64,000 nt of DNA from Patescibacteria group bacterium (GTDB lineage Bacteria; Patescibacteriota; CPR2; UBA1875; CAIMLA01): assembly GCA_041738615.1 (NCBI GenBank), contig JBGSPL010000003.1, positions 114,352 to 178,351 on the forward strand, read 5' to 3'. Of the stretch, positions 3,830-59,226 are shown one piece after another (positions within the stretch are counted from its first letter, which is position 1; each line of letters starts with the position of its first letter). The notes under the pieces were generated by a model that made no database searches, was not told where the DNA came from, and saw only the letters and a program-made list of their open reading frames with translations. Both the position numbers and the translations under genes were made by a program.

Positions 3830-4084
3830 ATGAGTACGGACGGAAGAGATTGGACCCTAGTGCCTGGGTTGCCACTTTGCGTAAATCCAGTAGGACTCCA
3901 GGTAGCTCGTATGTCTGCGGGCTTTACTCAGGAGTCGCTCGTTGGGCCGTGCCCGCTCAGGGGATCTATCCTGATCTACGGCCAGAGTTGCCGTTGTGGC
4001 GTCGCTGACGTCATTGGATGCGGCTACCTTGTTCACCAGGCAGAACCCGCCCTGGCCTCCATCCCGCTCGCCCCTAATCTCTAG
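3830..4084 (+). CDS. Island B hypothetical protein (84 aa)
   Basis: GC-rich; RBS GAGGAGGCACC-ATG nearly identical to the upstream gene's RBS; stop lies in terminator hairpin. Confidence 0.4.
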   Translation: MSTDGRDWTLVPGLPLCVNPVGLQVARMSAGFTQESLVGPCPLRGSILIYGQSCRCGVADVIGCGYLVHQAEPALASIPLAPNL

Positions 4085-4105
4085 GGGCGGGCGGGCGCCC
4101 TTTTT
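4070..4105 (+). terminator. Double-hairpin Rho-independent terminator of island B (GCCCCTAatctcTAGGGGC + GGGCGGGCGCCC TTTTT)
   Basis: Two GC-rich stems followed by T5; the palindromic CTAG supplies stop codons on both strands. Confidence 0.65.
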
Positions 4106-5523
4106 CCAAAAAACAACCAGATGTCCAATATGAAGATATACGCAAGGAGAATCCACCACGGGTTCTCTATTTTGTATGCCGCGCTCGCCCAGCCCACGCT
4201 TCCGGACCACGTGATAACAGCGTTTATAAAGTGCAATATATAAAAGGTGGGCACTGCCAGAAATGTCCCCAGCGGTTGCCAAAGTATCCCCACTATTCCC
4301 ATCGCAAATGTCATTGCCATAGCCAGCGGGACTAGCGCCAAGATTACAACATTTGTTAGTGGCGCTATCACCGATACAATACCAAAGTAGTAGGAAAGGA
4401 GCGGCAATGTAGCGATCTGAGCCCCGAGGGTCTCGGAAAAAAGTGCCACATAACCTCCGCCAGCTCTTTCGAATAGGTTTTCTATTGTCGGTCCTATGTA
4501 CACGATACCTGCGAATGCAACAAAAGAGAGTTGGAAACCGACATCAAAGAGCGGCAGAAATGGATTAAACACAGCCATCATTGTCGCTGAAAACAAAATC
4601 GAGATAAAATTATCACTTTCCCGCCCGAGGTATGATGCGAGTAATGGTAAAGAACCCATGAGCGCCGCGCGCACCAAACTTGGTGCGCCACCAGTCATTA
4701 AAACAAAAATTAGAATCAAGGAAACAGGGAGTATCAGCTTCATCCGACGTGACATTTTGTTTCTAATCAGCAAAAAAGCCCCCATCAGGATAGTGATGTT
4801 ATAACCCGAGAGCGCAATAATGTGCGTGGTTCCGCTCACTTGCAGTGCCCTGACCATCTCAGGGCTCACGAGCGCCTTTTCTCCCATGATTATTCCGCTC
4901 CCCAAGCCAGCCTCGGCTGAGGGCAAGAGTCGTGAGATTGATTCGTTTAGCGCCTGCCGAAATGAGAGAAGAATGCCCCTGGCACCAACAAACACGCCTT
5001 CGCTCTGACCCGAACTCTCATATTTGGAGACAGACACCTCTCCAAGGAGTCCGTTGCTAATCATTCGCCATCGTGTCTCTTCTTTGTAGCCGGTGATTTT
5101 GGTCTCCAGCTCCAGCAATTCGCCATACTTCGGGGCTGTTCCGCTGTTTATATAACCTGTAAGTTTCGAGCCCACAAGGTCAGATTCTCCTGACACGACG
5201 ACCAAACGTACCTTATCACCATGAAGTGCCTTCTGGGGCAAATCATCTACTCGCGCCGTGAAGTGAAGATTATTACCGGAATACATGGAGTTAAGTTCGA
5301 TCAACCTAGAAGCAACGGCCTGGAAATGCCAAAGGGAAAGTAAGAACAGCCCTAAGCCGAATATTGTTCCAAATAAATACGGTTTCTTCAAAAATAGAAA
5401 AGACAATGCGATTAAGGTTCCCGCCAACGCGAGGTAGCCAGCAAGATAAATAGGTAGCACGAAACCCGCGAAACATCCCGCCAGATAGCAAAATAGCCAA
5501 ATTAGCAGTACTTTTGCCTTCAT
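4081..5523 (-). CDS. comEC: ComEC/Rec2 family competence protein, N-terminal DUF4131 + competence (membrane channel) domains, no MBL domain
   Basis: 480 aa, many TM segments, ...HIIALSGYNITIL... competence-domain pattern; C-terminal codons (RAPARP*) run into the island B terminator hairpin. Confidence 0.8.
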   Translation of the reverse strand: MKAKVLLIWLFCYLAGCFAGFVLPIYLAGYLALAGTLIALSFLFLKKPYLFGTIFGLGLFLLSLWHFQAVASRLIELNSMYSGNNLHFTARVDDLPQKALHGDKVRLVVVSGESDLVGSKLTGYINSGTAPKYGELLELETKITGYKEETRWRMISNGLLGEVSVSKYESSGQSEGVFVGARGILLSFRQALNESISRLLPSAEAGLGSGIIMGEKALVSPEMVRALQVSGTTHIIALSGYNITILMGAFLLIRNKMSRRMKLILPVSLILIFVLMTGGAPSLVRAALMGSLPLLASYLGRESDNFISILFSATMMAVFNPFLPLFDVGFQLSFVAFAGIVYIGPTIENLFERAGGGYVALFSETLGAQIATLPLLSYYFGIVSVIAPLTNVVILALVPLAMAMTFAMGIVGILWQPLGTFLAVPTFYILHFINAVITWSGSVGWASAAYKIENPWWILLAYIFILDIWLFFGKRAPARP

Positions 5524-5565: not shown

Positions 5566-5629
5566 TCCCGAGACGGAGGGCACGAGTAATCGTGTCCTCA
5601 AATCGTAGTTCCCGACCAAGGGAGGTCGC

Positions 5630-6236
5630 TGTGAGCAAAACAACCGCAGCCCAAGAGGACACTCGCATTACCCCCGAAAAGCACGTCTACTTCGACGACT
5701 GGAACAAGACCAGCCTTCGCCTCGGCAAGCTCGCCCGAGTCCTTGGCTGGGGCAGCCCGACGAAGGGTGATGGTGCTTTCAGCTCCGGCCAGGCAATCCA
5801 ATTTCAGCGGGTCACGGTCATCCTGCCGAGCGACGGTTCCAAGCCGTTCTACCTCGGCAACATCGAGATGGATGGACCGGCCGTCAAGGTCAACACTCTC
5901 TTGGCAAAGGGGTTGATCGACCAGCAGACGGCAGACGCTATCAATGCCGAGGTCGAGCTCGCGAAGGCAGCACGCATCACACGTCGCAAGCAGACCGAGA
6001 AGGCAAGGGAGAACTTCTCCTCGGCAGAGGGCAGGCTCCGTCAAGCACTGGCAGAGGTCGATCAGGCGGATCGCTTGGTTCACAAGCTTTCACGTGACCG
6101 GAAGAAGCCCATCACTGAAGTCGACGTCGCGCGCAAGGCCTACTTCAAAGCACAGGACAAAGAGAAGCGTGCGCGGCGCCATCGCGACAGGCTCTCTGAG
6201 CTGCGCATGGTAGGTCGAATTTCTCTGCCCCTCTAG
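5630..6236 (+). CDS. Island C hypothetical protein (~202 aa from GTG)
   Basis: GC-rich; RBS AAGGGAGG 5618-5625 then GTG 5630; basic/coiled-coil C-terminus; leader contains 8-bp stem GNRA-tetraloop hairpin (5578-5597). Confidence 0.5.
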
Positions 6237-8835: not shown

Positions 8836-9423
8836 CTACTTCTTGATCAGCTGTATCCCCTGCTTTCTAAAGATTAATAGAAAGAGCGTCCCGCAAATCA
8901 AGAATATATATATTGGAAAAGCCGCTACCGTAAATGACCATGTCTTTATGGTTAGTAAAGTGATGGCTGCGCTGACAGCCCCAAAAAAGAACACGTTATA
9001 GCTCTCCGTTTCAGGAAATTTATAGGCCTTGATGAGAATAGGTACACCAGCAAGTAAGTCGGCTAAGATACTCAAAATGATTGCAACATAACCAGTTTTT
9101 GTCAGGAACCAAAGCACTAAAGCAAGCAAGGAAAGGGCACCGCAGGCAATATCAAGCTTTGAGATTTTCCAATAAGCCTTCGGGTCATGGAAGGAAACCA
9201 GAAAAACTACAGCTGGCCCAAAACCAACCATGAAGGTCATGAGCGAACGAAGACCAACGCCGCCGCTAATCTGGGCTGAAAAGGCGATTAACGGAGCTAG
9301 AGCCCAAAGGAAGAAAGTGACCCGGTTCGGCTGGGTCTTACCTCGAAAAGTATCTATAGCATAGCTGCTGCTTCCAACGAGATTTAATAGTGCCCCAAGT
9401 AAAACAAAATTTTCATTTAACAT
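8836..9423 (-). CDS. Hypothetical polytopic membrane protein
   Basis: 195 aa, ~6 TM segments. Confidence 0.5.
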   Translation of the reverse strand: MLNENFVLLGALLNLVGSSSYAIDTFRGKTQPNRVTFFLWALAPLIAFSAQISGGVGLRSLMTFMVGFGPAVVFLVSFHDPKAYWKISKLDIACGALSLLALVLWFLTKTGYVAIILSILADLLAGVPILIKAYKFPETESYNVFFFGAVSAAITLLTIKTWSFTVAAFPIYIFLICGTLFLLIFRKQGIQLIKK

Positions 9424-9468
9424 ACGTTTCTCCTTCCTATAAAATATACGCTAAATCCTATACAAAAA

Positions 9469-9506
9469 CAAAAATGAGGCATCCAACAAGTTGGAAACCT
9501 CATTTT
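9469..9506 (-). terminator. Hairpin AAAAATGAGGcatccaacaagttggaaaCCTCATTTTT following tRNA-fMet
   Basis: 10-bp stem flanked by A5/T5; reverse complement copy at 10319-10358. Confidence 0.55.
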
Positions 9507-9581
9507 TGGTAGCGGGGGTAGGATTCGAACCCACGACCTTCGGGTTATGAGCCCGACGAGCTGCCACTGCTCCACCCCGCG
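9507..9581 (-). tRNA. Initiator tRNA-fMet (CAT)
   Basis: CGCGGGGTGGAGCAG...TCGGGCTCATAACCCGA (three G:C pairs in anticodon stem)...GGTTCGAATCC...ACCA; closely resembles canonical bacterial initiator tRNA. Confidence 0.85.
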
Positions 9582-9632: not shown

Positions 9633-10028
9633 CTAGCCCTTAAAGAAGAACTTCAACCATTTCTCGGGACCAGAAAGCTTGTCATAAGGATCTTTTTCAG
9701 CCACTTTCTTGGTATCTTCTGGCAAGATAACTATCACCTTTTCACCTGGTTTCTGCAAACCCAGACGTTCTCTTGCTATCCGTTCCTGATAAGACGAGCT
9801 CTGGTAGTAGATGATCTTCTCAGAGAGGTCCTTATTTGCAAGCCTCATGGTCTCAATTTCGTTTTTGAGGCCATTGATCTCTTGTCTCACCTGATAGCTC
9901 TGGTAAAGGGTCTTCCCGACAACAAACAGTAAGTAAAGAATGGAGACGACTATAACGATGCGAATGAGGAAGTTATCTTTGTTCATATCTACATTATAGC
10001 AAGCAAGTATCTCGTTGACTATAAGCAC
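9633..10028 (-). CDS. FtsB/DivIC-like septum formation initiator (single TM + coiled coil); start uncertain (GTG 10028 or ATG 9986)
   Basis: TM helix then coiled coil QEINGLKNEIETMRLANKDLSEKIIYYQ... Confidence 0.5.
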   Translation of the reverse strand: MLIVNEILACYNVDMNKDNFLIRIVIVVSILYLLFVVGKTLYQSYQVRQEINGLKNEIETMRLANKDLSEKIIYYQSSSYQERIARERLGLQKPGEKVIVILPEDTKKVAEKDPYDKLSGPEKWLKFFFKG

Positions 10029-10139: not shown

Positions 10140-10215
10140 GGGCCTGTAGCTCAGTTGGTAGAGCAATTGCCTTTTAAGCAACTGGTCGCGCGTTCGAGTC
10201 GCGCCGGGCCCACCA
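10140..10215 (+). tRNA. tRNA-Lys (TTT)
   Basis: GGGCCTGTAGCTCAGTTGGTAGAGC...anticodon loop CTTTTAA...GTTCGAGTC...CCA. Confidence 0.85.
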
Positions 10216-10243
10216 GATATTTATTCCGATTCGTTCATGACGT

Positions 10244-10318
10244 GGCTGCGTAGCTCAGGGGTAGAGCAGCAGACTCATAAGCTGTTGGTCGGTGGTTCAA
10301 ATCCACCCGCAGCCACCA
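10244..10318 (+). tRNA. tRNA-Met (CAT), elongator-type
   Basis: GGCTGCGTAGCTCAGGGGTAGAGC...anticodon loop CTCATAA...GGTTCAAATCC...CCA. Confidence 0.85.
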
Positions 10319-10358
10319 AAAATGAGGTTTCCAACTTGTTGGATGCCTCATTTTTGTT
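10319..10358 (+). terminator. Hairpin terminator after tRNA-Met; inverted copy of the 9469-9506 element
   Basis: AAAAATGAGGtttccaacttgttggatgCCTCATTTTT. Confidence 0.55.
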
Positions 10359-10367
10359 TAGAAAATG

Positions 10368-10862: not shown

Positions 10863-10963
10863 AGTGTTCCTTATGTTAGCACTTCACCTAGTATAGCGCC
10901 TGACTGTATCTGTGGTCAAATATGCAAAGGGACGAGCGCCCGATGCATTTACTTTGCATCGGA

Positions 10964-11683
10964 CTACTCGTCCATGTATCCCTTCTTGGGGATTGTCGCC
11001 TCGTCATAGGGCATCCACCGATTGCCACCATGTGACTTCGCGAAGTACATCGCTCCATCGGCTGCCATTATGAGGCCCTCGACAGTGCTTACGCCCGGCT
11101 GACCGAGGCAGGAAATTCCGATTGAGGCGGTAATCGGGATTTTATGGTCAGCAAACGCCATTTCCACGAGAATCCGATACCTCTCAGCAGCCTTCTTTGC
11201 CGTCTCCATATCCGTGCCCAGAAGTACGATTACAAACTCATCGCCTCCCAGACGCGTCACGGTTTCTTCTGTACGAGAAGACCCCCGCAGGAAACTGGCC
11301 ACTTCCTTGAGGTAAACGTCCCCGCCTTGATGTCCTAGGGTGTCATTGACCTCCTTGAAATGGTCTATATCGACGAACAAGACCGAGAGCCTCTCCTTGG
11401 ACCTGTTCGCTCGAGAGACTTCCTTTTCGAGAAGCGTTTCGAGCCCGACACGGTTCGTGAGTCTAGTCAACGGATCTAGATGGAGCTCCAGCTCTAGATA
11501 GGCAACTTGTCCCTCACTGCACTGCAGCTTCTGAGAAAGACGCACCAACGCCACTGCCAGGATAGCCACGAAGGCCGCCAAGACAGTGATACCCACAAGT
11601 AGCACTTGCTCCAACATTGTCTTCAGCCTCCCTCCGGCTGTACTTGTCCCGTTTTTCGGGAACACAGACATATTGCAACACAA
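10964..11683 (-). CDS. GGDEF-domain diguanylate cyclase with N-terminal TM/coiled coil
   Basis: RLGGDEFVIV (GGDEF motif), LFVDIDHFKEVND. Confidence 0.8.
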   Translation of the reverse strand: MCCNMSVFPKNGTSTAGGRLKTMLEQVLLVGITVLAAFVAILAVALVRLSQKLQCSEGQVAYLELELHLDPLTRLTNRVGLETLLEKEVSRANRSKERLSVLFVDIDHFKEVNDTLGHQGGDVYLKEVASFLRGSSRTEETVTRLGGDEFVIVLLGTDMETAKKAAERYRILVEMAFADHKIPITASIGISCLGQPGVSTVEGLIMAADGAMYFAKSHGGNRWMPYDEATIPKKGYMDE

Positions 11684-11726
11684 AGAGTCTCTATCCCTGA
11701 AAACATATTAATATACCACAATATGG

Positions 11727-12627: not shown

Positions 12628-12887
12628 TTCACTTCTCCACTCAGTACGTCATTTACGCTATCTAGGGTCTTTTTATCTAAATACCTAGTAATCTCTACGT
12701 TGCATTCGCTCACTAGCTTCGCCAAGGCATCTATGTCATTACCAACTACCTGCGCAAGCTTCTTGGCATCATTAATGATCTCTTCTGCTACCTCTGGGTA
12801 CTCGTGCTCCAGGGTGCGAATGATTTTGTACAAATTATCGAATGGCATCACGTTCGTATCGGTCATATTTCCTCTTTCTGGGTACAT
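12624..12887 (-). CDS. Hypothetical protein
   Basis: 87 aa; 4-nt overlap with downstream ORF. Confidence 0.45.
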   Translation of the reverse strand: MYPERGNMTDTNVMPFDNLYKIIRTLEHEYPEVAEEIINDAKKLAQVVGNDIDALAKLVSECNVEITRYLDKKTLDSVNDVLSGEVK

Positions 12888-12913
12888 TATATACCAAGCT
12901 ATAAATATCGTAA

Positions 12914-12983
12914 AACGCGAAAGGACCGGAGTCCCAGCTCGCGTTGCACCGAAGTGCTAGCGAACCGGAACCCGGTCCTCGTT
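12914..12983 (-). repeat. 70-nt structured repeat element copy 1 (terminator-like, 3' of island D gene D1); identical to 13754-13823
   Basis: 100% identical 70 nt; on minus strand forms GGACCGG...CCGGTCC outer stem with inner GCAC-UUCG-GUGC hairpin, followed by TTTCGCGTTTTA. Confidence 0.8.
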
Positions 12984-13025
12984 GTGCTTTTACCCTTGCG
13001 GGTCAGGCTGCACGCCTGTGTGGAG

Positions 13026-13568
13026 CTAGAAGCTCTTGAGCTTCTTCTGGAGATCTTTGATTGCGTTGAGGGTCTCCGTGTCCTCGCCCTCGTTGTCGCC
13101 GATGTTCTCGGCGCTGACAACGTACTTGGCCAAACGGTTGATACGTGTCTCGATGGCTTTGCGGGGAAGGTCCCGCCCTTCGACCATGTCGTAGAGCATC
13201 GGGATGACGTTGTCACCGAGATTGCCGTACGCGTAGCCTTGGGCATCCTTGCCCGTGAGACGATCTTCGTAATCCTTCATGGCGTCGTCGAAGTTCACGA
13301 GCAATTGCTTCGGGTTGGCTACCAAGTTCAACTGGTAGAGCTGGTCGTCCTGCTTGACGATCTCCTCCTGGAGAGCGTCGGCGCGCTCGGACTGGGCGTC
13401 GAGTTGCTCCTGAACGGACTTGTACTCGGCCTGGAGCTTCGCGAGTTCCTTACCCTGCTGGATAGCGACCTGGGCCGTCGTCTCGCTCTTGGCCTGCATC
13501 TTGAAAGCAGTGCCGAAGGCGAGTACGAGCAATGCACAGACAACTATCAACGCAAAGATCTTCCTCAT
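13026..13568 (-). CDS. Island D gene D1: secreted coiled-coil hypothetical protein (180 aa from MRKIF)
   Basis: GC-rich; signal peptide MRKIFALIVVCALLVLAFG; RBS GAGAGGGGA 7 nt before ATG. Confidence 0.5.
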   Translation of the reverse strand: MRKIFALIVVCALLVLAFGTAFKMQAKSETTAQVAIQQGKELAKLQAEYKSVQEQLDAQSERADALQEEIVKQDDQLYQLNLVANPKQLLVNFDDAMKDYEDRLTGKDAQGYAYGNLGDNVIPMLYDMVEGRDLPRKAIETRINRLAKYVVSAENIGDNEGEDTETLNAIKDLQKKLKSF

Positions 13569-13709
13569 TTGAGATCCCCTCTCATCGAGCCCCATCGGGG
13601 CCTATTCCACTTGTTTTCGCCGGCGGCGACAGCTGATCACGATGTTCGTGAGCAATTGTCGCCGTGGCGATAGATTCAAGGTGCAATTCTTGATTTCTCA
13701 AGACAGACT

Positions 13710-13737
13710 ATATTAACATACTTGTTTGTTTTGTCAA
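13710..13737 (-). promoter_or_regulatory. sigma70-like promoter TTGACA-N16-TAATAT for D1
   Basis: Perfect -35 hexamer on minus strand in AT-rich linker. Confidence 0.5.
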
Positions 13738-13753
13738 GTGTTTTCTACGCTAT

Positions 13754-13823
13754 AACGCGAAAGGACCGGAGTCCCAGCTCGCGTTGCACCGAAGTGCTAG
13801 CGAACCGGAACCCGGTCCTCGTT
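13754..13823 (-). repeat. 70-nt structured repeat element copy 2 (3' of island D gene D2)
   Basis: Identical to 12914-12983; about 25 nt downstream of D2 stop. Confidence 0.8.
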
Positions 13824-13846
13824 TGTGGTCGCACTCTTGCGACCTG

Positions 13847-14155
13847 CTACCCCCGCTGGAAACCCTGGAAGACGTCCTGAAGCGGACCAGGCACGTTCTG
13901 CAACGAACCGCCTGCGCGGCAGAACTTGGCAGCGTAGTTCGTGACGGTCTCGACGTCGTTGACGTCGCAATCCAGAGGAACACTGCCGATGGTGTCAAGG
14001 TTGCGCTCGAGCTGCTCAAAGGCAACATTCACCGGAATTCCGCCGTGCGGGACGTACTGGAAGCCGTTCTCGGTCATGATCTTGAAGACCGCGCCCATAA
14101 GGGCAAGAACCTTCAACTCATGACGTTCCGTGCCAACCTGCTGATCGCGTGCCAT
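13847..14155 (-). CDS. Island D gene D2 hypothetical protein (102 aa from MARDQQ)
   Basis: GC-rich; AAGGAG RBS 7 nt before ATG 14155. Confidence 0.45.
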   Translation of the reverse strand: MARDQQVGTERHELKVLALMGAVFKIMTENGFQYVPHGGIPVNVAFEQLERNLDTIGSVPLDCDVNDVETVTNYAAKFCRAGGSLQNVPGPLQDVFQGFQRG

Positions 14156-14171
14156 TGTTCGCTCCTTCGTG

Positions 14172-14489
14172 TTAGAGTGTCGCCTCGAGGGCGGCGCGTA
14201 CCTGATAGAGCTTCTTCTGGTTGCGCTGGCCGATCGGGCTGTGCGGGTCGATAACGAAAACCGACTTGACCACCTTGACGATCGGGCTGTCCGCTGAACC
14301 GGCATGGACCTTGGCCGTGAACTTCACGACTTCGGACTTGGCCGGTGCGGCCACGACATCAGGCAACTTCGGGAGATGACCCCGGTTGCTGCCCTTGACG
14401 ATCGGCGCCTTGGTGGCACCTCTGCGAGGCGTGTTGCCACGACGTTCGCGAGCACGCTTGACCTTCTTGGACTCGGTAGGCTTTCCCAC
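14172..14489 (-). CDS. Island D gene D3: small basic hypothetical protein (105 aa, GTG start)
   Basis: Lys/Arg-rich N-terminus; RBS GAGGGGAG 6 nt before GTG. Confidence 0.45.
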   Translation of the reverse strand: MGKPTESKKVKRARERRGNTPRRGATKAPIVKGSNRGHLPKLPDVVAAPAKSEVVKFTAKVHAGSADSPIVKVVKSVFVIDPHSPIGQRNQKKLYQVRAALEATL

Positions 14490-14530
14490 GGTAGCTCCCC
14501 TCGTCTTGTCCCTCAGGGACAGCTGACGTA

Positions 14531-14908
14531 CTAGGACGTCTCGTCGATATAGCGAGCGAGCGTCCAGGTGATGGACAGCTCATCGTGCGCCCCATTGTTC
14601 GTGACCTGCTCAACCTTACCGATCTTCCAACCGGCGTTGAGTGAGAACAGGACCGCGAGCTCCTCGTCAGCACGAAGCAAACGACGAACCTCCTGGACGG
14701 TCTTTCCCGAGAGACCCTCACCGGTATTGATCGTAATCGACCGGTAGTAGGGATCTATAATGCTGGTTGCCTGATAGGGGCGCTGATAGCACTCCTTCAT
14801 CCCACAACCAACAGCGACCGCCAGCGCGACGGCTACCCGATCTTTAACGCCGATGTAAATTTCGTCGACGTCACTAACCACGCTTGCAAGCTCGTCCTTA
14901 TCCAACAT
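14531..14908 (-). CDS. Island D gene D4 hypothetical protein (125 aa from MLDKDEL)
   Basis: RBS GAAAGGAAAC; start placed downstream of leader palindrome; ORF track start (14971) lies inside the palindrome. Confidence 0.45.
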   Translation of the reverse strand: MLDKDELASVVSDVDEIYIGVKDRVAVALAVAVGCGMKECYQRPYQATSIIDPYYRSITINTGEGLSGKTVQEVRRLLRADEELAVLFSLNAGWKIGKVEQVTNNGAHDELSITWTLARYIDETS

Positions 14909-14937
14909 GTCTTGTTTCCTTTCGGAATAGTATGGGC

Positions 14938-14989
14938 ATTGTTTACTGCAAACTATAGACACTATGGTCAACAGTTTGCAGTAAACAAT
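14938..14989. promoter_or_regulatory. Perfect 17-bp inverted repeat ATTGTTTACTGCAAACT-N18-AGTTTGCAGTAAACAAT in D4 leader (operator or RNA hairpin)
   Basis: Each arm is itself a near-palindrome (GTTTAC-T-GCAAAC); lies between promoter at 15025-15053 and the RBS. Confidence 0.6.
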
Positions 14990-15024
14990 AAGTAAAGTTA
15001 CATTTCGCTCTCACGAAACGTTAT

Positions 15025-15053
15025 ATTCTAGCATTTATATCATGTTTTGTCAA
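15025..15053 (-). promoter_or_regulatory. sigma70-like promoter TTGACA-N17-TAGAAT for D4-D3-D2 operon
   Basis: Consensus -35, 17-nt spacer, 5/6 -10, AT-rich linker inside GC-rich island. Confidence 0.55.
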
Positions 15054-15132
15054 TACTACATATGCATAGCGGGCAAGCCCGAATGCATGTGGTATGCAAA
15101 CGGACTCGCCCGCGCGGCTAGTAGCTGGACTG

Positions 15133-15702
15133 CTAGTAGTATTCCTTGGCGGCGTCGTTGAAGCCATCCGCCTCGAGACTGTTGATCATCTGATCGTAGT
15201 CCTTGGTGGCGCTGGGCCAGATATCGGACTTCTTGTACCCCGCCTTCTTGAGGACCTTGAGGACCTTGACGAGCTTGTCGTACTTGCGCCACGCCGCTCG
15301 CCCCTCGATGTTTCCAGGGTACCAGTTCATGAAGCGCGCCACGACTGCCCTCCACCGCCACTCGGGGTGCTCCTTGCGTCCCTCGACGATTCGGATGGTC
15401 GCGTCGAGCGCCATCAGGTAGTGCTCGTCCTCGATGGTGACCTCCCCGCCGTTGGCTTCGCTCCACGCCATGTGGTCGAGAAACTGGCTGATCGGCTCCC
15501 CGGGATACCTGCCGTGAGGTTCAGGCATCGGAGGCGGTTCCTCGGAATCTGCTGCTGCCTGAGCGGCATCTACCGCACTCGTTGCTTCAGGCAAGAAACG
15601 TTGAGTGCGATCAATACTCTTGTTGCACGAACGGATGTAGATGGCGACACCCCCAAGCAAAACCAGTACCAAGATGACGACATGAACCGTACGCAACCGC
15701 AT
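15133..15702 (-). CDS. Island D gene D5: membrane-anchored hypothetical protein (189 aa)
   Basis: N-terminal TM; RBS CAGAGGGGTAGG 6 nt before ATG. Confidence 0.5.
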   Translation of the reverse strand: MRLRTVHVVILVLVLLGGVAIYIRSCNKSIDRTQRFLPEATSAVDAAQAAADSEEPPPMPEPHGRYPGEPISQFLDHMAWSEANGGEVTIEDEHYLMALDATIRIVEGRKEHPEWRWRAVVARFMNWYPGNIEGRAAWRKYDKLVKVLKVLKKAGYKKSDIWPSATKDYDQMINSLEADGFNDAAKEYY

Positions 15703-15742
15703 GAGTTACCTACCCCTCTGAGCCGCAGCTCGGTCAAAATTG

Positions 15743-15796
15743 ATTTTCCTCAACACCCAAGGGACGATGAGTCGCCCACTGCGTGCTGAGGAAAAT
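15743..15796 (-). promoter_or_regulatory. Imperfect inverted repeat (TTTTCCTCAAC...GCTGAGGAAAA) in D5 5' leader
   Basis: 11-bp arms with 1 mismatch, 33-nt spacer. Confidence 0.35.
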
Positions 15797-15823
15797 AGGT
15801 ACAAAACATACGTTTAACGTGTG

Positions 15824-15852
15824 ATTATAGGCCTATTTTAGACATTTTTCAA
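15824..15852 (-). promoter_or_regulatory. sigma70-like promoter TTGAAA-N17-TATAAT for D5
   Basis: On minus strand at the island D / dnaJ boundary. Confidence 0.5.
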
Positions 15853-16079
15853 GAGTATTCAATAGAAATACCCTCCCTCCGCGACCTGCAAAATACGACG
15901 CGTAAGGTTCCTCCTTGATTTAGTGATTTCTAGCATTTAACGTTAAGGACTTTAGTAAGCATGACTAGTCGTTGCGAAGGTCCTCAGACCGCCGCATTTA
16001 GAATGTCTTTTTGGATACTTTTGTGACAATGGACAAAAGTATCACGAGCGCCTTACTTTAGTAGGGGCGAAAAAGTATT

Positions 16080-26063: not shown

Positions 26064-26091
26064 GGCCGGCGCTCCATGCGGAGCGCCGGCC
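26064..26091. terminator. GC-rich perfect hairpin GGCCGGCGCTCC-ATGC-GGAGCGCCGGCC between convergent hydA and island E gene
   Basis: 12-bp perfect stem; overlaps stop of 26091..26702. Confidence 0.55.
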
Positions 26092-26702
26092 TATAGTCCC
26101 AGTGCCTCTTTTGCCTTCTCGGTCCCGTGCCTCAGCCGTGGGGCCTGGAAGTAGTCGATAACGTCGATTCCCGCCATCTTGTTGGGCAACCCAGCAGAGA
26201 GCTGATTGCCGAGAATCTGAGCACTCATTCCGCCGTCTTCTACCCAAATCAGGGCTGCCAGGTGGGCGTACGGCGTCCCGACTTGCTTCCCGTAAGGAAC
26301 CAGTCCGCGAAGCTCCACGTTTGCGTCGCCGTTATCGTAGTAGTACTTACCGCCGACCATCGAGAGCGGTACCAGCGTGTGTGCGAACGCCTGCACCTGT
26401 CTTGGAAGCTCGGCACCAATCGTTGTTTCGATGGTGTCGAATTTGCCAGTATGCCCCGTCCCCGAGAAATGAAGCAGCAATGAACGCTGGTCTATCTTCC
26501 CCGAGGTTTGCCGTGCCGTCGCCGCGAGATCCATGAGACCATCGAGACTTGTAGCCAGCACACCGAAGGCTTCGAAGAAATCGTCCGACTTGTCACGGTC
26601 TAGCAGCTCTACGGCCTTCATCATGGGACCGTACGCGCCGCCGCAGCTAGCCAGAAGTTCTCTAGCGAGACCCTTGTCGTTAGGGTTCATTTCCAGGTTC
26701 AT
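26091..26702 (-). CDS. Island E GC-rich hypothetical protein (203 aa) appended to hypC operon
   Basis: High GC; RBS AGGAGG 7 nt before ATG, start 12 nt after hypC stop. Confidence 0.5.
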   Translation of the reverse strand: MNLEMNPNDKGLARELLASCGGAYGPMMKAVELLDRDKSDDFFEAFGVLATSLDGLMDLAATARQTSGKIDQRSLLLHFSGTGHTGKFDTIETTIGAELPRQVQAFAHTLVPLSMVGGKYYYDNGDANVELRGLVPYGKQVGTPYAHLAALIWVEDGGMSAQILGNQLSAGLPNKMAGIDVIDYFQAPRLRHGTEKAKEALGL

Positions 26703-30370: not shown

Positions 30371-30406
30371 CTACTATAGGGGTTCGGTGTATTCTAGAAC
30401 TAAATT

Positions 30407-30787
30407 CTAACGATATAAACACTCATACGGTGCTTCCCAGCTGGGAGGCGCACCGACTGGAGGCGTACAAACGTCCGTATTTATGTCATTCTTCACTGGT
30501 ACTTCATCGGCATCTACGGAGCAAACCCAACCGTTTCCAGACCCTGGCATAGAGGCCTGCCCATTATCTTGCTTTCGGGTTGGGACCAATCCTTCGCAGC
30601 ACTTTTTCTTGTCACAATCAACACAAGAGCCCCCTAGCTCCTCACCCTCCAATAGGCACTTAGTGCTTACCTTATTGTTACGCCAAGTTGTAGTTCCAAC
30701 ATAAACTAGTACCCCGGCTAGGACAACGACGACGAGTATAGATAAATATATTATGTCTTTTTTGTTCATACAGATACTATAGCACAA
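30407..30787 (-). CDS. Small secreted Cys-rich protein
   Basis: 126 aa, signal anchor, 12 Cys. Confidence 0.5.
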   Translation of the reverse strand: MCYSICMNKKDIIYLSILVVVVLAGVLVYVGTTTWRNNKVSTKCLLEGEELGGSCVDCDKKKCCEGLVPTRKQDNGQASMPGSGNGWVCSVDADEVPVKNDINTDVCTPPVGAPPSWEAPYECLYR

Positions 30788-31005
30788 ACAAAAATAATGC
30801 CTACAAAAAGCATTATCTTATATTTTGGTGGGCCTGGTATCAAATAATTTACACCTTATCTTAGAAGAGACTAGCCGCTGGCGAACCATTCTTAGTATTG
30901 AGTATGAGAGATATAAGCTTGAAAGGAGTTACGCTCCCTTGTGTTAGTTGCACTAGTGATTACTAGTAATTCTCCACGTAGGGTCGGCGTAGAAAAAGTA
31001 AAACT

Positions 31006-31428
31006 ATGTCATTAGCAGATAGGTTCCACCCAACAAAATATGATGAGAGGTACATACACTTTGCTTTATGCGTGAGTAGTATGGACACTGTCGCTGCTGC
31101 CCTTGATGAACTATACAACAAAGGCTATTCGCCTGGTAACAAGATTGGGAGAGTTAAAAATGAAACCGAGGCTGAACATCTACTTGAGATACTCAATACC
31201 CCCGGAGCGCTTACCTGTGTCCTAAACGTAAAGGGACTAGAAGCACAGTGGCCAAGATTTGAGTACATTAAGTCCAACCTAACAGGCTATATTTACTACT
31301 TTTTATGTAGTGACTGTGGCAAGAGAGTAAAGTTTCTCTACCACACTAACTCGAGTTATGGGTATAAGTGCAGAGACTGTCAGAGGCTTCGATATCCTCC
31401 AAACAAGAAGTACCTATATAACCTATAG
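31006..31428 (+). CDS. Hypothetical protein with C-terminal zinc ribbon
   Basis: CSDCGKRV...CRDCQRL. Confidence 0.45.
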   Translation: MSLADRFHPTKYDERYIHFALCVSSMDTVAAALDELYNKGYSPGNKIGRVKNETEAEHLLEILNTPGALTCVLNVKGLEAQWPRFEYIKSNLTGYIYYFLCSDCGKRVKFLYHTNSSYGYKCRDCQRLRYPPNKKYLYNL

Positions 31429-31677
31429 GTCCTCGAGCATCACTGACAGATCAACCTTCATCGCTTTTGACATTCTCCACACAGTATAAACACTCGGCGA
31501 GTACCTTCCCGTTTCTATGTGTCCAATGTAGGCGCTGTCATACCCAGCAGCTTCTGCTAACTTTTCCTGAGTAAAGCCATTCGCCTTTCGAACTTCCTTA
31601 ATTCTTAAGCCTATCTTCTTAGCGAAGTCTTTCTTCTGCTTGGCCTTTTCTAAAATATCTAAATCTCTAAACTCCAT
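31423..31677 (-). CDS. XRE-family helix-turn-helix transcriptional regulator
   Basis: 84 aa; FTQEKLAEAAGYDSAYIGHIETGRYSPSVYTVWRMSKAMKV. Confidence 0.8.
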   Translation of the reverse strand: MEFRDLDILEKAKQKKDFAKKIGLRIKEVRKANGFTQEKLAEAAGYDSAYIGHIETGRYSPSVYTVWRMSKAMKVDLSVMLEDL

Positions 31678-31743
31678 AACAAGATTATCGGTGTATTCGT
31701 AGATAATTCTTATGGCGTAGACATAGACTTTTCACATAATAAG

Positions 31744-32124
31744 TTGTATATTTTGCCTATGAGTAAAACAAAGTACTACAGTTACGTTTTTGTGGGGATA
31801 CTGTTAGGCGCTATGGCGGGACTACTCTTCACGTTCGTTAAGGTGAACTACTTTGAGAAAACAAAAAGCGGAATGTTTGCTGTACACAAAGAGTGTGTCC
31901 AGTGGAATGAAGCCTGTATCGACGCGTGCGAAGACTCTCGCGACGACGTTCGGGGCGGTAGCTGTAGTAGTTGCTGCATATTAGAAGATGACGTTGTAGA
32001 AACCCTTGGAGACCGACTTTCTTCAGAAGCAAAACTATACGGCCTTGTCTTTGCTTTTGGCCCTGGCTTACTTGTGGGGCTTGGACTAGCAGAAGATAAG
32101 AGAAAAAGGATAGAAAATGTTTAA
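31744..32124 (+). CDS. Hypothetical small membrane protein
   Basis: 126 aa. Confidence 0.4.
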   Translation: MYILPMSKTKYYSYVFVGILLGAMAGLLFTFVKVNYFEKTKSGMFAVHKECVQWNEACIDACEDSRDDVRGGSCSSCCILEDDVVETLGDRLSSEAKLYGLVFAFGPGLLVGLGLAEDKRKRIENV

Positions 32125-32302
32125 ACAAATGGATCGCTCAAGAAAGTTTGAGTTGTTTATAGGTATTCCTATAGGAGTTACCCTTATCAACATACTTAAA
32201 CCTGGTGCCCTAATAGCAATGGGGATATTTCTATTGTTCTTCTTTGGTGCCGGCCTTATTGGAGCCATAACAGACAAGGACCAGGATGAAAAAGCCAAAT
32301 AA
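32117..32302 (+). CDS. Hypothetical small membrane protein
   Basis: 61 aa, overlapping start/stop with neighbours. Confidence 0.35.
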   Translation: MFKQMDRSRKFELFIGIPIGVTLINILKPGALIAMGIFLLFFFGAGLIGAITDKDQDEKAK

Positions 32303-32525
32303 ACAAGCGCTAGATGATCTCTACGAGTTTGGGCTTGATTTGTTCAGTAACGAACCAACAACTAAACCGTACAATATTGACTACAAGCCAGGTTACGGAC
32401 CAAATGGGAGCGCTCTTCAAAGACTCTTGCATCGCTGCTTAATGGGTCTTATAGTTATCGCTTTTCTGGCGGTTCCTGTTATTACCTTGCTGGGTATTTG
32501 GGCGCTACTGACGAGGTTACTTTAA
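32286..32525 (+). CDS. Hypothetical small membrane protein
   Basis: 79 aa. Confidence 0.35.
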   Translation: MKKPNKQALDDLYEFGLDLFSNEPTTKPYNIDYKPGYGPNGSALQRLLHRCLMGLIVIAFLAVPVITLLGIWALLTRLL

Positions 32526-32562
32526 TTTGCTTATGGCTTGTCAAAGGGATTAAAATATAGCT

Positions 32563-32889
32563 ATGACAAAAATGTTAGAAGAACTATCTAAAGACTTCGT
32601 GCCGAAAACGCCCCTAGGGCATATTTGGAATATAATTCTTAGTTTTTTTGCCCTAAGTATTCACCTTTCGATAGCTGTATTCGTTATGAAAGCCTTCGCA
32701 CAGAGAGTTTATATGACCGACCTGGATAGTCTTTACCTCGTCTGGTTTTGGCTGCCCTGGGTGGCCTTTGCTGTGTGGGTACCGATTGGGATAAAATTGA
32801 AGAAAATCAAACACCCAGTTTTAACCTCATTCGCAGTAGTTATTTGGTTAATTGCATGGTTCGGTGGACTAGTTTCGGCGGTACAGTAG
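32563..32889 (+). CDS. Hypothetical small membrane protein
   Basis: 108 aa, 3 TM. Confidence 0.4.
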   Translation: MTKMLEELSKDFVPKTPLGHIWNIILSFFALSIHLSIAVFVMKAFAQRVYMTDLDSLYLVWFWLPWVAFAVWVPIGIKLKKIKHPVLTSFAVVIWLIAWFGGLVSAVQ

Positions 32890-32939
32890 AGGTGAATGAC
32901 CACTAGTCATAGTGGAAAGAAATTGTTTTCTCTGTTATA

Positions 32940-33959
32940 ATGACGAATATGAAGGAAGTTAATGTGGCCAAAGAAAAAATAACTGACCTAATAAAAGAAC
33001 TCGAAGTTGAAAGAAAATCAAAAGTTATCGTCTTTATTACGGGCGATAAACAGCCAAACGAACAGTTTGGAACTCAGGTCCACCCTGAGCAGTTGGTTTT
33101 CTTCCGCAAAACTCTTGAAGATATGGGTTCGACTGATAAGATATCACTTGTTTTAGACACTAGGGGTGGAGCTCTTGAAATGCCTTGGCCACTAGTAAAC
33201 CTAATAAGAGAATACTGTAAACGATATGAAGTTATCATTCTAGAAAAGGCACTAAGTGCCGGAACGCTAATCGCTTTAGGCGCCGATAAGATCGTTATGC
33301 AGCCATTCTCACACTTAAGCCCAGTTGACCCTGCTACTTTTATTCCCAATGGCAACCCTAATGTTCTAGAAAAGCTTGAGATAGAAGACATTATAGGTTT
33401 CATCGACTTCGCAAAAGAAAAGGTTGGCATAGCCGAACAGGCAGCTCTTTCAGACGTTATGAAGGAACTAACTAAGCAGATTAAACCGACACTCTTAGGC
33501 TCGGTTAACAGAACATACGCCCTCATAAGAAAGCTTGCTAGACAGCTACTGTCCCTGCACGGAAGCAAACTCACCGAGAAACAAGTCAATGAGATTACAG
33601 AGCACCTGACCCAGAAGCTTTACTCCCACAGTTACCTGATTAACAGGAAAGAGGCAAAAGAGATTATAGGCTTCGGTAATATTATTGAGAAATCTACTGG
33701 AAAGACACGTGAAATATCAACAAAGATAATGGACTACTACAGAGACCTGATGGATGTTGATAAAGAGTTTAACCCACCGGCTTTACTTGCAGACAAAGAG
33801 ACTGTTGACTACTCGGTCGTAGCAGCTGTGGTCCAAAGTTCAGCAAAGAAGTTCTCGTTTACAAACAAACTTAGACTTACCAAAATATCCGACCCTTCAG
33901 GAAGACTAAATATTAACTTAGAAGTCATCGAGAGAAAATGGTTAGAGGAAAAAGAATAG
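32940..33959 (+). CDS. SDH-family (ClpP/crotonase-fold, S49-like) serine protease
   Basis: 339 aa; VFITGDKQ...LVLDTRGGALEM...SAGTLIALGADKIVMQPFSHLSPVDP. Confidence 0.6.
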   Translation: MTNMKEVNVAKEKITDLIKELEVERKSKVIVFITGDKQPNEQFGTQVHPEQLVFFRKTLEDMGSTDKISLVLDTRGGALEMPWPLVNLIREYCKRYEVIILEKALSAGTLIALGADKIVMQPFSHLSPVDPATFIPNGNPNVLEKLEIEDIIGFIDFAKEKVGIAEQAALSDVMKELTKQIKPTLLGSVNRTYALIRKLARQLLSLHGSKLTEKQVNEITEHLTQKLYSHSYLINRKEAKEIIGFGNIIEKSTGKTREISTKIMDYYRDLMDVDKEFNPPALLADKETVDYSVVAAVVQSSAKKFSFTNKLRLTKISDPSGRLNINLEVIERKWLEEKE

Positions 33960-34186
33960 GAGTAACTATGTTTAGTACTTGTAACACTGTGTGCGCGTCT
34001 AATAATAAAGTCCTTACTTTCAGAAGTTCGACTGCAAATGGTAAAGTCGAAACACATTATAATGTTATTGAGCCTTATATTATAAGCAAAACTAATATCG
34101 TCAATAATCAATCGGCCACCGAAGAGATGGACAATGATTTTGATGTGAAGATTAACAAACAATTTTTTCAAACAAAGAATATTTAG
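33938..34186 (+). CDS. Hypothetical protein
   Basis: 82 aa, overlaps protease stop. Confidence 0.3.
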   Translation: MVRGKRIGVTMFSTCNTVCASNNKVLTFRSSTANGKVETHYNVIEPYIISKTNIVNNQSATEEMDNDFDVKINKQFFQTKNI

Positions 34187-34189
34187 TAA

Positions 34190-34693
34190 ATGTACATTCC
34201 TAGCAGAGAAATTGATAAAACCATATTTTATCAAGGGGATGTTATAAAGAACTTCCCCTTTTTTGTTTTGTCTGAGCTTGAAGAAAAAGTAGCTGCCATA
34301 AAAGAAGCTGGCGAGGGTACAATTGAAATTAAATCGAAGCTAGTTGACGTTATGATACTTTCTCAAACCTGCGATATCCAACGCCGAGACCAAGTCATCG
34401 TAGCTCCAATAGCTTCAATGGCATCTGGGGTAGAGAGCGGTGAATTGAAAGCAAACATACTGGATAATATCCGTGGGCGAAAAATCAACTTCCTATTTTA
34501 CCTCCCTGAAAGCCCTGATCTTATCCCAGAGTCTTACTGTAATCTTCAGCTCATCTACTATGTTTCTCCTGCGTTACTAAATAGTTTTGCAGACAATAAA
34601 GCAGTTACGCTAAGCGATTGGGGAAGACACCACCTTAGCTGGGCCCTCAGTAATTACTTTGGACGCCCAATAATTAGCAAGGTAAGGGACTAG
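34190..34693 (+). CDS. Hypothetical protein
   Basis: 167 aa. Confidence 0.45.
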   Translation: MYIPSREIDKTIFYQGDVIKNFPFFVLSELEEKVAAIKEAGEGTIEIKSKLVDVMILSQTCDIQRRDQVIVAPIASMASGVESGELKANILDNIRGRKINFLFYLPESPDLIPESYCNLQLIYYVSPALLNSFADNKAVTLSDWGRHHLSWALSNYFGRPIISKVRD

Positions 34694-35049
34694 TCTTTTG
34701 ACTTTAGTGGGGATGGTTTGATATAATATAGCTACAATTTGATTTTCGAAATGAGGTGTCCTGCGTGATCGCGTGGGCATTTTTTAATTTCGAGAGGCGT
34801 TGTGTGGGTCAAGGGCTAAACAAAACTGATTATGAGACACTTGAGAATGAGCAGGCGGAGGCCTGGGCCAGTCTGCTCTATTCTATGTTCCGCAAGAAGA
34901 AACAACGTGAAGCTTTGCAAAGCCCTGGAGGTAATAATATAATGGTATTGGACACAAATAACGACGAAGCAAGAAGGCAGTGATGGCAGTCTCTTATTCC
35001 TTGTCGTTAAGGAGTGTCCAGAGGCTGCCATCTTTGTTAGGAGTATTCT

Positions 35050-36635
<1,586 letters not shown>

Positions 36636-36678
36636 TAGACCGGTAGATTGTAGCAAATACAGGCTCAGATTTCAAGGT

Positions 36679-44331: not shown

Positions 44332-44437
44332 AGCGACAAGCCGAGGAGGCGAGACGGAGTTGAGAGGTGTACCGTTCTTTTATCAAGACTTGGTTTCGCC
44401 AGCCGGCGAACAGGGTCCCGGAAAGGGGGCGAAAGGT

Positions 44438-46615: not shown

Positions 46616-46633
46616 CGCCACAGGCGCTAGAAC

Positions 46634-46690: not shown

Positions 46691-46700
46691 TTTACCTATA

Positions 46701-59216: not shown

Positions 59217-59226
59217 GGTGGTTCAA

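Follow-up and report, generated by a model that had tools for sequence, protein, structure and literature searches.

Five open reading frames (ORFs) occupy the minus strand between 12.9 and 15.9 kb of the DNA analysed here, a 64,000-nucleotide stretch of contig JBGSPL010000003.1 from a Patescibacteria group bacterium (the window, in what follows). We call them D5, D4, D3, D2 and D1, in the order of transcription. The original prediction, made from the sequence of the window alone, had taken them for one GC-rich island of five genes with promoters of its own. With moderate confidence, we favour another account, namely, that they form three adjacent and self-contained units of orphan genes (D5; D4-D3-D2; and D1), retained by vertical descent in one lineage of Saccharibacteria, within an interval of variable content between dnaJ and a gene encoding a GGDEF protein. 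The ORFs are as follows:

15133-15702, minus strand: D5, 189 amino acids (aa)
14531-14908, minus strand: D4, 125 aa from an ATG preceded by a ribosome-binding site (RBS); the longest ORF is a 146-aa form starting at TTG
14172-14489, minus strand: D3, 105 aa, GTG start
13847-14155, minus strand: D2, 102 aa
13026-13568, minus strand: D1, 180 aa

According to this account, each unit would comprise a near-consensus sigma-70 promoter of native type, an AT-rich structured leader, one to three ORFs that are rich in G and C and poor in A at third codon positions (GC3 and A3, respectively), and a hairpin; the long GC-rich hairpin would end the unit as a terminator, directly against the next promoter. 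The unit of D5 would encode a probable lipoprotein with an all-helical ectodomain; that of D4-D3-D2, three small cytoplasmic proteins, in turn acidic, basic and acidic, which are probably translated together; and that of D1, a protein tethered at its N terminus, whose coiled-coil stalk bears a four-helix-bundle head. We infer that D5 and D1 may belong to the envelope or surface of an epibiotic cell and serve, for example, in contact with the host or the environment, that the leaders and hairpins may control mRNA life and translation, and that a gene-specific force acting at the codon level, rather than recent import, may keep the codon usage.

Conservation of the genes and of the signals that delimit them

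A 22-mer from a 73-nucleotide (nt) repeat within the cluster, described below, was searched in 185,579 species genomes and matched a single one, the Candidatus Saccharibacteria metagenome-assembled genome CAZCRI010000005.1 (loci L002 and L008; the sister genome). It is syntenic with the window over at least 16 kb and has all five D genes, in the same order and at the same site, namely, hydrogenase genes, hrcA-grpE-dnaK-dnaJ, D5-D4-D3-D2-D1, the 80-87-aa and 90-aa genes, a kinase-like gene, the GGDEF gene and divIC. Amino-acid identities between the window and the sister orthologues are 0.63 for D5, 0.47 for D4, 0.84 for D3, 0.58 for D2 and 0.72 for D1, with ratios of non-synonymous to synonymous divergence (dN/dS) of 0.23-0.42. 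Moreover, products of 189, 125, 105 and 102 aa (D5, D4, D3 and D2) were called independently on a 4.1-kb Logan contig, which ends about 50 nt past the D2 stop codon, inside a copy of the 73-nt repeat, as expected at a repeat. The ORFs themselves, the independent gene call and the orthologues thus bear out the five minus-strand genes originally described. They are real, evolve under purifying selection, and have been handed down at this site since the common ancestor of window and sister genome, if not for longer.

The tight spacing reported for D4-D3-D2 was confirmed, with gaps of 41 nt (D4-D3) and 16 nt (D3-D2), as was the position of the cluster, bordered on one side by dnaJ and on the other by native small genes, that is, an 87-aa gene of native GC content and a 90-aa gene. 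The nearest tRNA genes lie at 10140-10318. No integrase, transposase or recombinase ORF was found between 12.9 and 15.9 kb, either in the ORF list or by domain scans, and there are no phage genes near the cluster; the sole recombinase seen, a serine recombinase at 35050-36603, lies 20 kb off and belongs to another element, which is AT-rich. Some 200 nt between the dnaJ stop codon and the D5 promoter (15861-16079) are without a counterpart in the sister genome, and represent an indel at the cluster edge.

Long plus-strand ORFs at 12804-13673, 13784-14254 and 15094-15789 lie directly opposite the frames of D1, D2 and D5, respectively. We took these for shadow ORFs and not for overlapping antisense genes, since they arise where TTA and CTA codons are missing and TCA is rare; for D3, the sense translation is better conserved than the antisense translation. 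In the NCBI annotation of the sister genome, an antisense ORF of this kind (147 aa; L008 11429-11872) is called instead of the D2 orthologue. A candidate paralogue of D4 at 34190-34693 was also rejected: the D4 orthologue in L002 hits it by BLASTP with E = 5e-6, but D4 of the window does not, and hhalign gives a probability of 1.9%.

Beyond the sister genome, relatives are scarce, and the comparisons draw on two to four genomes. All five D proteins are singletons at 90% identity among some 15 billion proteins, their source contig being 187,941 bp long. A D5 profile matched three of 5.8 billion cluster representatives, namely, D5 itself, the sister orthologue and a protein, P0017, from a more distant genome (locus L003; aa identity of 80% for dnaJ and 88% for dnaK). 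There, P0017 is encoded in the dnaJ-GGDEF interval among other small ORFs, and no trace of D1-D4 was found in that interval. Among the operon genes, for which a search for co-occurring homologues had been proposed, D4 was run and found only itself and the orthologue in L002 among the 5.8 billion representatives. For D1, an exhaustive phmmer search of 1.84 billion representatives recovered three true relatives: the sister orthologue (72% identical); P0019, 41% identical and encoded behind an unrelated Zn-ribbon ORF on a 1.3-kb contig (L006); and P0020, of 253 aa, 32% identical and adjoining the gene for EF-P (L007). No relatives of D1-D5 were found in IMG/VR, none of D1 in JGI metagenomes using a pattern scan, and none of D2 and D3, the two proteins searched there, among INPHARED phages and PLSDB plasmids. 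Nor did a GC-rich donor lineage emerge among the relatives of D5, D4 and D1, which all reside in a few related metagenomic genomes of lower GC content, Saccharibacteria by record title or shared synteny where they could be assigned.

Since D5 and D1 are found apart and in other contexts in other genomes, the units are autonomous. The notion of one five-gene module had therefore to be abandoned: there are three transcription units, D5 occurs in three genomes, standing in the third without D1-D4, and D1 has relatives in two further contexts. The word island, understood as a recent insertion into a native background, does not fit either, because these genes also occupy the corresponding site of the sister genome, with the synonymous sites of D2 and D4 fully randomised (see below). 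Absence from the same site in a close relative, by which genomic islands are recognised, was not observed; the sister genome has all five genes and the distant L003 still has D5. On these comparisons, the cluster is best described as three separate units (D5; D4-D3-D2; D1), each with its own phylogenetic spread, in an interval of varying content. As a side observation, the dnaJ-GGDEF interval of L003 includes a GC-rich orphan ORF of 64 aa (8920-9114), and a homologue with 82% identity is found next to the NiFe-hydrogenase genes in L008 (2-169); the hydrogenase-side site of the window holds a different GC-rich orphan, at 26091-26702.

The promoters, leaders and hairpins associated with the units are:

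15824-15852, minus strand: D5 promoter, TTGAAA-N17-TATAAT, 11 of 12 consensus positions; TTGAAA-N16-TATAAT at the same place in L002
15025-15053, minus strand: D4-D3-D2 promoter, TTGACA-N17-TAGAAT, with TG extension; TTGACA-N17-TACAAT in L002
13710-13737, minus strand: D1 promoter, TTGACA-N16-TAATAT, with TG extension; kept in L002
14938-15021, minus strand: 5' leader of the operon, with a 5'-terminal hairpin (15000-15021) and a hairpin with 23-nt arms (14938-14989)
13569-13703, minus strand: structured leader of D1, about 135 nt, with a long stem-loop and a hairpin over the RBS
12911-12983, minus strand: 73-nt hairpin, copy 1, right after the D1 stop codon and abutting the promoter of the 87-aa gene
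13751-13823, minus strand: 73-nt hairpin, copy 2, right after the D2 stop codon
15059-15115, minus strand: junction hairpin after D5, with a 19-bp covarying stem and a UAUGCAU tail (consensus UUUGCAU), abutting the operon promoter
Sites of the junction hairpin family: window, 15059-15115 and 10919-10977; L003, 10633-10689 and 11646-11699; L006, 396-453 and 1222-1274; L008, 10591-10647

The three sigma-70 promoters of the original prediction were found with the sequences it had given, and are conserved in the second genome; they match the consensus at 10-11 of 12 positions. Their location in AT-rich linkers was also upheld, as promoter and leader segments have 33-47% GC. Within the region, promoter-like sites number 10, versus 3.9 ± 2.2 in shuffled sequences. 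A 46-nt block at the D5 promoter is 93% identical between the window and L002, and at the position of L006 that aligns with the D1 promoter there is a TTGACA box with promoter-like -10 candidates. More generally, the hexamers are kept in L002 while the spacers between them have diverged, which is the pattern of working promoters, and by this criterion the D promoters are probably functional. The promoter of the 87-aa gene (TTTACG-N17-TATAAT, 12914-12886) is kept in L002 as well.

The leaders are also conserved as structures. In that of the operon, the hairpin at 14938-14989 is the strongest local inverted repeat of the window, with arms that are 91% complementary, and in L002 its stem is kept and its loop diverged. 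The D1 leader is kept in the window, L002 (4063-4200) and L006 (499-634), where the protein is only about 40% identical, and its long stem shows four compensatory pairs among the three sequences. Better conserved than the downstream protein, this leader is a possible cis-regulatory RNA not described before. In Rfam, no family matched the leaders or hairpins, the sole match with E < 1 between 12 and 16.5 kb being a sub-threshold miRNA-like hairpin; over the whole window, tRNAs alone pass the gathering threshold. Similar conservation is seen upstream of the GGDEF gene, where an 85-nt block (11617-11701) is 90% identical to the sister genome, versus about 60% around it. Within this block are an RBS, a small hairpin (GUUCCCGAAAAACGGGAC) and a box of the extended -10 type; it probably serves the GGDEF gene as promoter and leader.

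Two families of hairpins close the units. The copies at 12911-12983 and 13751-13823 form a perfect direct repeat of 73 nt, missed in the original prediction, which flanks D1 with its promoter and leader and not the whole cluster. The element folds as a 21+4-bp hairpin (-49.2 kcal/mol, z = -7.4) followed by UUUCGCGUUUU. Its four copies in the two genomes are 97-100% identical, in surrounding DNA that is about 60-75% identical, and show two substitutions, of which the first affects a bulged base and the second changes A-U to G-U; both are neutral to the structure. Exact 22-23-mers had no match in IMG/VR or JGI metagenomes, and among the 185,579 species genomes the hairpin was found in the sister genome alone, with none in L003, L006 or L007; matches being confined to the sister genome, the element is local and not a genome-wide repeat.

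The junction hairpin is more widespread. Among five copies, 9 of 19 pairs show compensatory changes, and a covariance model (R1) scores 73 bits at 15059-15115. The hairpin also follows the D5 homologues and, in L006, both the unrelated Zn-ribbon ORF and the D1 homologue, with the UUUGCAU tail kept and the next TTGACA box 6-20 nt downstream; using the covariance model, weaker copies were detected after the GGDEF gene in all three genomes. Considered as terminators, both families have stable stems right after stop codons and interrupted U-tracts (UUUCGCGUUUU and UUUGCAU), and a simple terminator scan made no call.

Synonymous codon usage and mosaic divergence

The GC-richness noted at the outset is real and confined to synonymous sites. 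The D genes have GC3 of 0.68-0.81 and A3 of 0.04-0.09, versus about 0.45-0.55 (thus around 0.5) and 0.15-0.38 in native genes, and these are the most extreme values among the long ORFs of the 64-kb window, with sharp boundaries. They are therefore orphans with outlying GC3, and not ordinary housekeeping genes of host-typical GC content. Pooled GC at first, second and third codon positions (GC1, GC2 and GC3) is 0.62/0.38/0.76 for the D genes versus 0.58/0.38/0.52 for 15 native genes. The amino-acid make-up is close to native, with Lys at 7.3% in both sets and K/(K+R) of 0.55 versus 0.64 in native genes, whereas codon choice is skewed, with hardly any codons ending in A (AAA 6%, ACA 6%, CTA and CCA 0) and no TCT. 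The GC excess of the D genes is thus purely synonymous; only third positions differ. This runs against taking GC-richness as a sign of proteins from a high-GC donor, since GC1, GC2 and amino acids are native-like. Within the cluster, promoters and leaders resemble native intergenic DNA in GC content, and ORFs and terminators have 56-62% GC. Regional GC-biased conversion or mutation, considered as a cause, was disfavoured, given that promoter spacers, hairpin loops and leaders inside the cluster are AT-rich.

The same bias is present in the relatives. Orthologues in L002 have GC3 of 0.76-0.79, versus 0.31-0.47 in the flanking genes of L002; A3 is 0.06-0.13 in the D genes of L002 and 0.11-0.15 in the distant D1 and D5 homologues, versus 0.20-0.34 in their neighbours; and the gene for P0020 has GC3 of 0.68, next to an EF-P gene at 0.36. 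Where window and sister encode the same residue, the codons differ at a fraction of 0.55 in D4 and 0.53 in D2, which is 100% and 97% (ratios of 1.00 and 0.97) of the expectation for independent draws from D usage. The synonymous sites of D2 and D4 are thus, on this count, fully randomised between the sister genomes, with the bias kept in both. As the bias survives full synonymous turnover, recent import without amelioration does not explain it.

Codon preferences were compared with those of presumed highly expressed native genes, the set comprising dnaK, grpE and ATP synthase genes and no ribosomal-protein genes. These prefer CCA (0.54), ACT, GCT and TCT (0.28), which the D genes avoid, using CCG, ACG and GCG instead. 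In two-fold families, the D preference (AAG, CAG, TTC, ATC, with CGC/CGT) goes in the same direction as that of the dnaK and ATP synthase genes; 10 codons are discordant and 15 concordant. The dnaK and ATP synthase genes have GC3 of about 0.5 and A3 of 0.16-0.26, and the D codon usage resembles that of a genome with about 58-60% GC.

The remaining ORFs of the window with raised GC content (1064-1978, 3857-4282, 5592-6236, 26091-26702, 44360-47304, 49478-50207 and 59059-59661; GC3 of about 0.55-0.71) lack Pfam domains too. With A3 of 0.14-0.21, they are milder than the D genes, and several have near-consensus promoters (5537, plus strand; 44145, plus strand; 50117, minus strand; 1599, minus strand). 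GC-rich composition may accompany orphan status across this genome. Literature searches on the codon usage of Saccharibacteria or Patescibacteria, and on GC-rich islands in their genomes, brought up nothing relevant.

Divergence from the sister genome is mosaic. Synonymous differences amount to 12 of 88 in D3 and 59 of 110 in D2 plus D4 (Fisher p = 3e-9). D3 is about 88% identical to its sister orthologue in nucleotides, and both its dN and its dS are some 4-7 times lower than those of D2 and D4, with similar dN/dS. The low-divergence block coincides with the boundaries of the D3 ORF, and the flanking DNA is about 58% identical. The cores of D5 (about 15300-15480) and D1 (about 13160-13280) show intermediate synonymous divergence. 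Additional RNA structure and a better-conserved alternative frame were considered as causes of the D3 block, and neither explains it.

Predicted products and likeness to known systems

As originally claimed, the D proteins have no recognisable domain: no model of Pfam, PHROGs, PADLOC or NCBIfam matched D1-D5 at curated cut-offs, and profile searches of PDB sequences with all five proteins gave nothing below E = 0.04. By these searches, none of the five seems assignable to a family. The predicted localisations are supported, with N-terminal hydrophobic anchors in D5 and D1, and three small cytoplasmic proteins, one of which is highly basic. D5 consists of the anchor, an invariant Cys26, a variable linker and a conserved, Trp-rich, all-helical domain (about residues 60-189); its Cys aligns with lipoboxes in L002 (LIGC) and L003 (MIGC), so that D5 is a probable lipoprotein with an all-helical ectodomain. 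The AlphaFold2 model of D1 (predicted local distance difference test, pLDDT, 75) shows an N-terminal anchor or signal, modelled as a transmembrane helix, a 54-residue helix, in agreement with the exported coiled-coil protein of the original prediction, which could act as a stalk, and a four-helix-bundle head that contains the family motif GN(L/V)GD..(I/F)PML. Two relatives have a lipobox-like Cys (TTGC in L002, NAGC in P0019) and another has a transmembrane helix. Both D5 and D1 may thus be membrane-tethered helical proteins with a role in the cell envelope or in host contact.

The cytoplasmic proteins D4 (isoelectric point, pI, 4.7) and D2 (pI 4.9) are acidic and evolve fast, and D3 (pI 11.1) joins a basic, low-complexity and probably disordered N-terminal tail to a conserved C-terminal half. 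The likeliest role for D3 is to bind nucleic acid or to form the conserved core of some small complex. Among phage and defence profiles, D1 had matches to Rz-like spanins (PHROGs, E = 0.002-0.02), which involve the transmembrane and coiled-coil region and are not significant, together with a weak match to LysB. LmuB, with E = 0.035 over the coiled coil, was its sole defence-profile match, and there was none for toxin-antitoxin or other profiles.

Comparison with known systems places the cluster closest to flexible genomic islets in some respects only. As in these, conserved anchors, here dnaJ and the GGDEF gene, enclose compositional outliers, L003 has another gene content in the interval, and the genes lack domains, several of their products being predicted to be exported. 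Acquired genes are usually AT-richer than the host genome, however, whereas the D cluster is GC-richer, with an excess that is synonymous and survives saturation; it has neither mobility genes nor an adjacent tRNA gene, and order and position are identical in the sister genome. We regard the cluster as an orphan-gene islet with unusual and persistent codon usage, and with unusually conserved hairpins and leaders.

Integron arrays, and clusters of attC sites lacking integrases (CALINs), share with the D cluster compact head-to-tail units that each end in an imperfect palindrome, one hairpin family behind unrelated ORFs, and identical repeats, here of 73 nt, on both sides of a gene, here D1. Unlike promoterless cassettes under a common Pc, each D unit has a conserved promoter and leader of its own. 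The module has no IntI integrase, the ORFs of the window having been scanned for one in part. The D hairpins lack the RYYYAAC/GTTRRRY cores of attC sites, as read in both 73-nt copies, whose ends are ACAACGAGG... and ...CGCGTT(A/T)TA, and in the junction hairpins; furthermore, they lie on the transcribed strand with a U-rich tail, like terminators, and number two to three elements in 64 kb. With intrinsic terminators or 3' stabilising stem-loops they have in common their place at the end of each transcription unit, where a GC-rich stem immediately behind the stop codon precedes a U-rich stretch (UUUCGCGUUUU or UUUGCAU). They differ in that the stems, of 21+4 bp and 19 bp, are of unusual length, the U-tracts have interruptions, and the 73-nt element is conserved far beyond the need of a terminator, with neutral sites saturated.

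D1 recalls the Braun lipoprotein Lpp and the phage Rz i-spanin in its N-terminal lipid or transmembrane anchor, the long predicted coiled-coil helix that follows and the weak spanin profile matches. It departs from them in the extra conserved four-helix-bundle head and in having no significant sequence or fold match, and no o-spanin, holin or endolysin partners, as expected for Rz, lie near it. Saccharibacteria are usually viewed as lacking an outer membrane. Type II toxin-antitoxin modules resemble D4-D3-D2 as tight operons for proteins of about 100 aa, one very basic and conserved and the others acidic and fast evolving. The operon has three genes and not two, however, with no match to toxin-antitoxin or defence profiles and no palindromic operator over its promoter, the palindrome being in the transcribed leader.

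Elsewhere in the window, an AT-rich stretch at about 30400-36640 carries an XRE-type regulator (31423-31677), a ClpP/SDH-type protease (32940-33959) and the 517-aa serine recombinase (35050-36603) already mentioned, whose ORF runs into a tRNA-Met gene (36560-36635). This stretch is probably an integrated element. On the minus strand at 2206-2277, by another GC-rich patch, ARAGORN reports a tRNA-Val with anticodon AAC (A34), which is unusual in bacteria and has a low Rfam score of 39.5 bits. Finally, two inverted tRNA-Met genes lie in a 115-nt inverted repeat (9466-9580 and 10245-10359; 78% complementary), each flanked by a hairpin with 19-nt arms (9469-9508 and 10317-10356), and between them are a divIC-like ORF of 131 aa (9633-10028) and a tRNA-Lys gene (10140-10215).

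Origin of the units and their significance

Several observations weigh against our account of vertically retained orphan units. In D3 and in the cores of D5 and D1, synonymous divergence is 2-4-fold lower than in adjacent D2 and D4 and in the native flanks, which pure vertical descent with selection at the protein level does not explain. The polarised synonymous changes in D5 and D1 comprise 20 GC>AT versus 9 AT>GC, an excess that hints at slow decay instead of strict equilibrium, parsimony being biased in that direction in GC-rich sequence. Valid searches of the large protein sets cover D1, D4 and D5. As for the products, the lipobox of D5 in the window, IRSC, is atypical with respect to [LVI][ASTVI][GAS]C, and the confidence of its model is low (pLDDT 63); D1 of the window, which is atypical, and P0020 have no Cys after the hydrophobic region. 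The structure models proposed as a check came out helical for D5 and D1, but their fold matches are all to generic helical bundles or repeats, with no specific match for D1 in PDB or BFVD.

The main rival supposes a pool of mobile expression cassettes, shared among Saccharibacteria or with an unsampled GC-richer element and moved from hot spot to hot spot by recombination at conserved hairpin-promoter junctions, so that the GC-rich codons would be those of the pool and the low-divergence blocks (D3, the D5 and D1 cores and the hairpins) recent exchanges. The same junction hairpin behind unrelated ORFs (D5, the Zn-ribbon ORF, the D1 homologue and the GGDEF gene), the identical 73-nt repeats around D1 and its promoter, the different contexts of D5 and D1 elsewhere, the 64-aa GC-rich orphan at different hot spots in L003 and the sister genome, the 4-7-fold lower dN and dS of D3 relative to D2 and D4, and the other domain-less GC-rich ORFs of the window, several with consensus promoters, are all in its favour. 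Yet no recombinase, integrase or transposase lies in or beside the module, the 73-nt hairpin is specific to the locus (absent from IMG/VR and JGI metagenomes, and in the sister genome alone among the 185,579), the sources of 15 billion proteins include no GC-rich genome or element that could be its home, the order and position of the genes are identical in the sister genomes, and the D3 block ends at the ORF boundaries, where flanks about 58% identical could not support homologous exchange. We judge this pool unlikely. It is tempting to go further and imagine a class of self-contained cassettes, each with a consensus promoter, a structured leader, GC3-rich and A3-poor ORFs and a covarying hairpin junction, whose codon usage is actively kept against the mutational drift and the translational preferences of the genome, and which are reshuffled between hot spots (the dnaJ-GGDEF interval and the 3' side of the hydrogenase genes) via hairpin junctions without a dedicated integrase. 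This we consider a long shot; in its extreme version, the codon usage may be tuned to a high-GC actinobacterial host, with the products or genes acting in or on that host.

Composition by itself would suggest import from a GC-rich donor, such as the actinobacterial host of the epibiont, without amelioration. Nothing else in the window deviates as strongly in GC3 and A3, and the boundaries are sharp; the codons look like those of a genome with some 58-60% GC, and in four-fold families they go against highly expressed native genes (CCA 0 versus 0.54, TCT 0 versus 0.28); and the slight GC>AT excess goes the same way. What makes this origin very improbable is that the homologues of D5, D4 and D1 are confined to a few related lower-GC genomes in the sets of 5.8 and 1.84 billion, with the bias shared even by the distant ones, that amino acids, GC1 and GC2 are native-like, that syntenic sister orthologues with saturated synonymous sites have the same bias, and that promoters and leaders are conserved and of native type. 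Translational optimisation of very highly expressed genes, for instance for envelope proteins and a nucleoid- or ribosome-associated basic protein carried on high-expression cassettes, would account for promoters at 10-11 of 12 consensus positions, for 5' stem-loops and very stable 3' hairpins, and for the agreement of two-fold families with the dnaK and ATP synthase genes. It founders on the four-fold families, which go the opposite way (CCG, ACG and GCG for CCA, ACT, GCT and TCT), and on the GC3 of about 0.5 and A3 of 0.16-0.26 of those same genes, and is in our opinion quite improbable. The least credible alternative is a remnant of prophage lysis, superinfection or defence functions, or a toxin-antitoxin-like module, in which D1 and D5 would be spanin- or exclusion-like and D4-D3-D2 a toxin and antitoxin set. 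The weak PHROG matches of D1 to Rz-like spanins (E = 0.002-0.02) and LysB, and an acidic-basic-acidic operon with a conserved basic member and fast-evolving acidic ones, do recall such systems; all matches are sub-significant, however, and driven by the transmembrane segment and coiled coil, PADLOC gave nothing of note, no relatives turned up in IMG/VR (D1-D5), INPHARED (D2 and D3) or BFVD (D1 model), the vicinity has no phage genes, the nearest recombinase being 20 kb off, and the cluster is stably syntenic in two species.

The locus is of interest at two levels. Little is known of how Saccharibacteria, as reduced epibionts, make contact with their hosts, and orphan surface proteins are obvious candidates; the locus provides two new protein families predicted to be exported (D5 and D1) together with a conserved small basic protein (D3), all of them clearly under selection and equipped with well-delimited promoters, leaders and hairpin terminators. 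More generally, a persistent GC3 and A3 bias that is confined to ORFs, and that goes against the preference of highly expressed genes, is something for which the standard reading as horizontal gene transfer without amelioration is insufficient. If genome-wide in this clade, such a bias would indicate that synonymous sites are subject to a gene-specific force not recognised so far, and would call for caution in using GC3 alone to call foreign islands in genomes of the Candidate Phyla Radiation.

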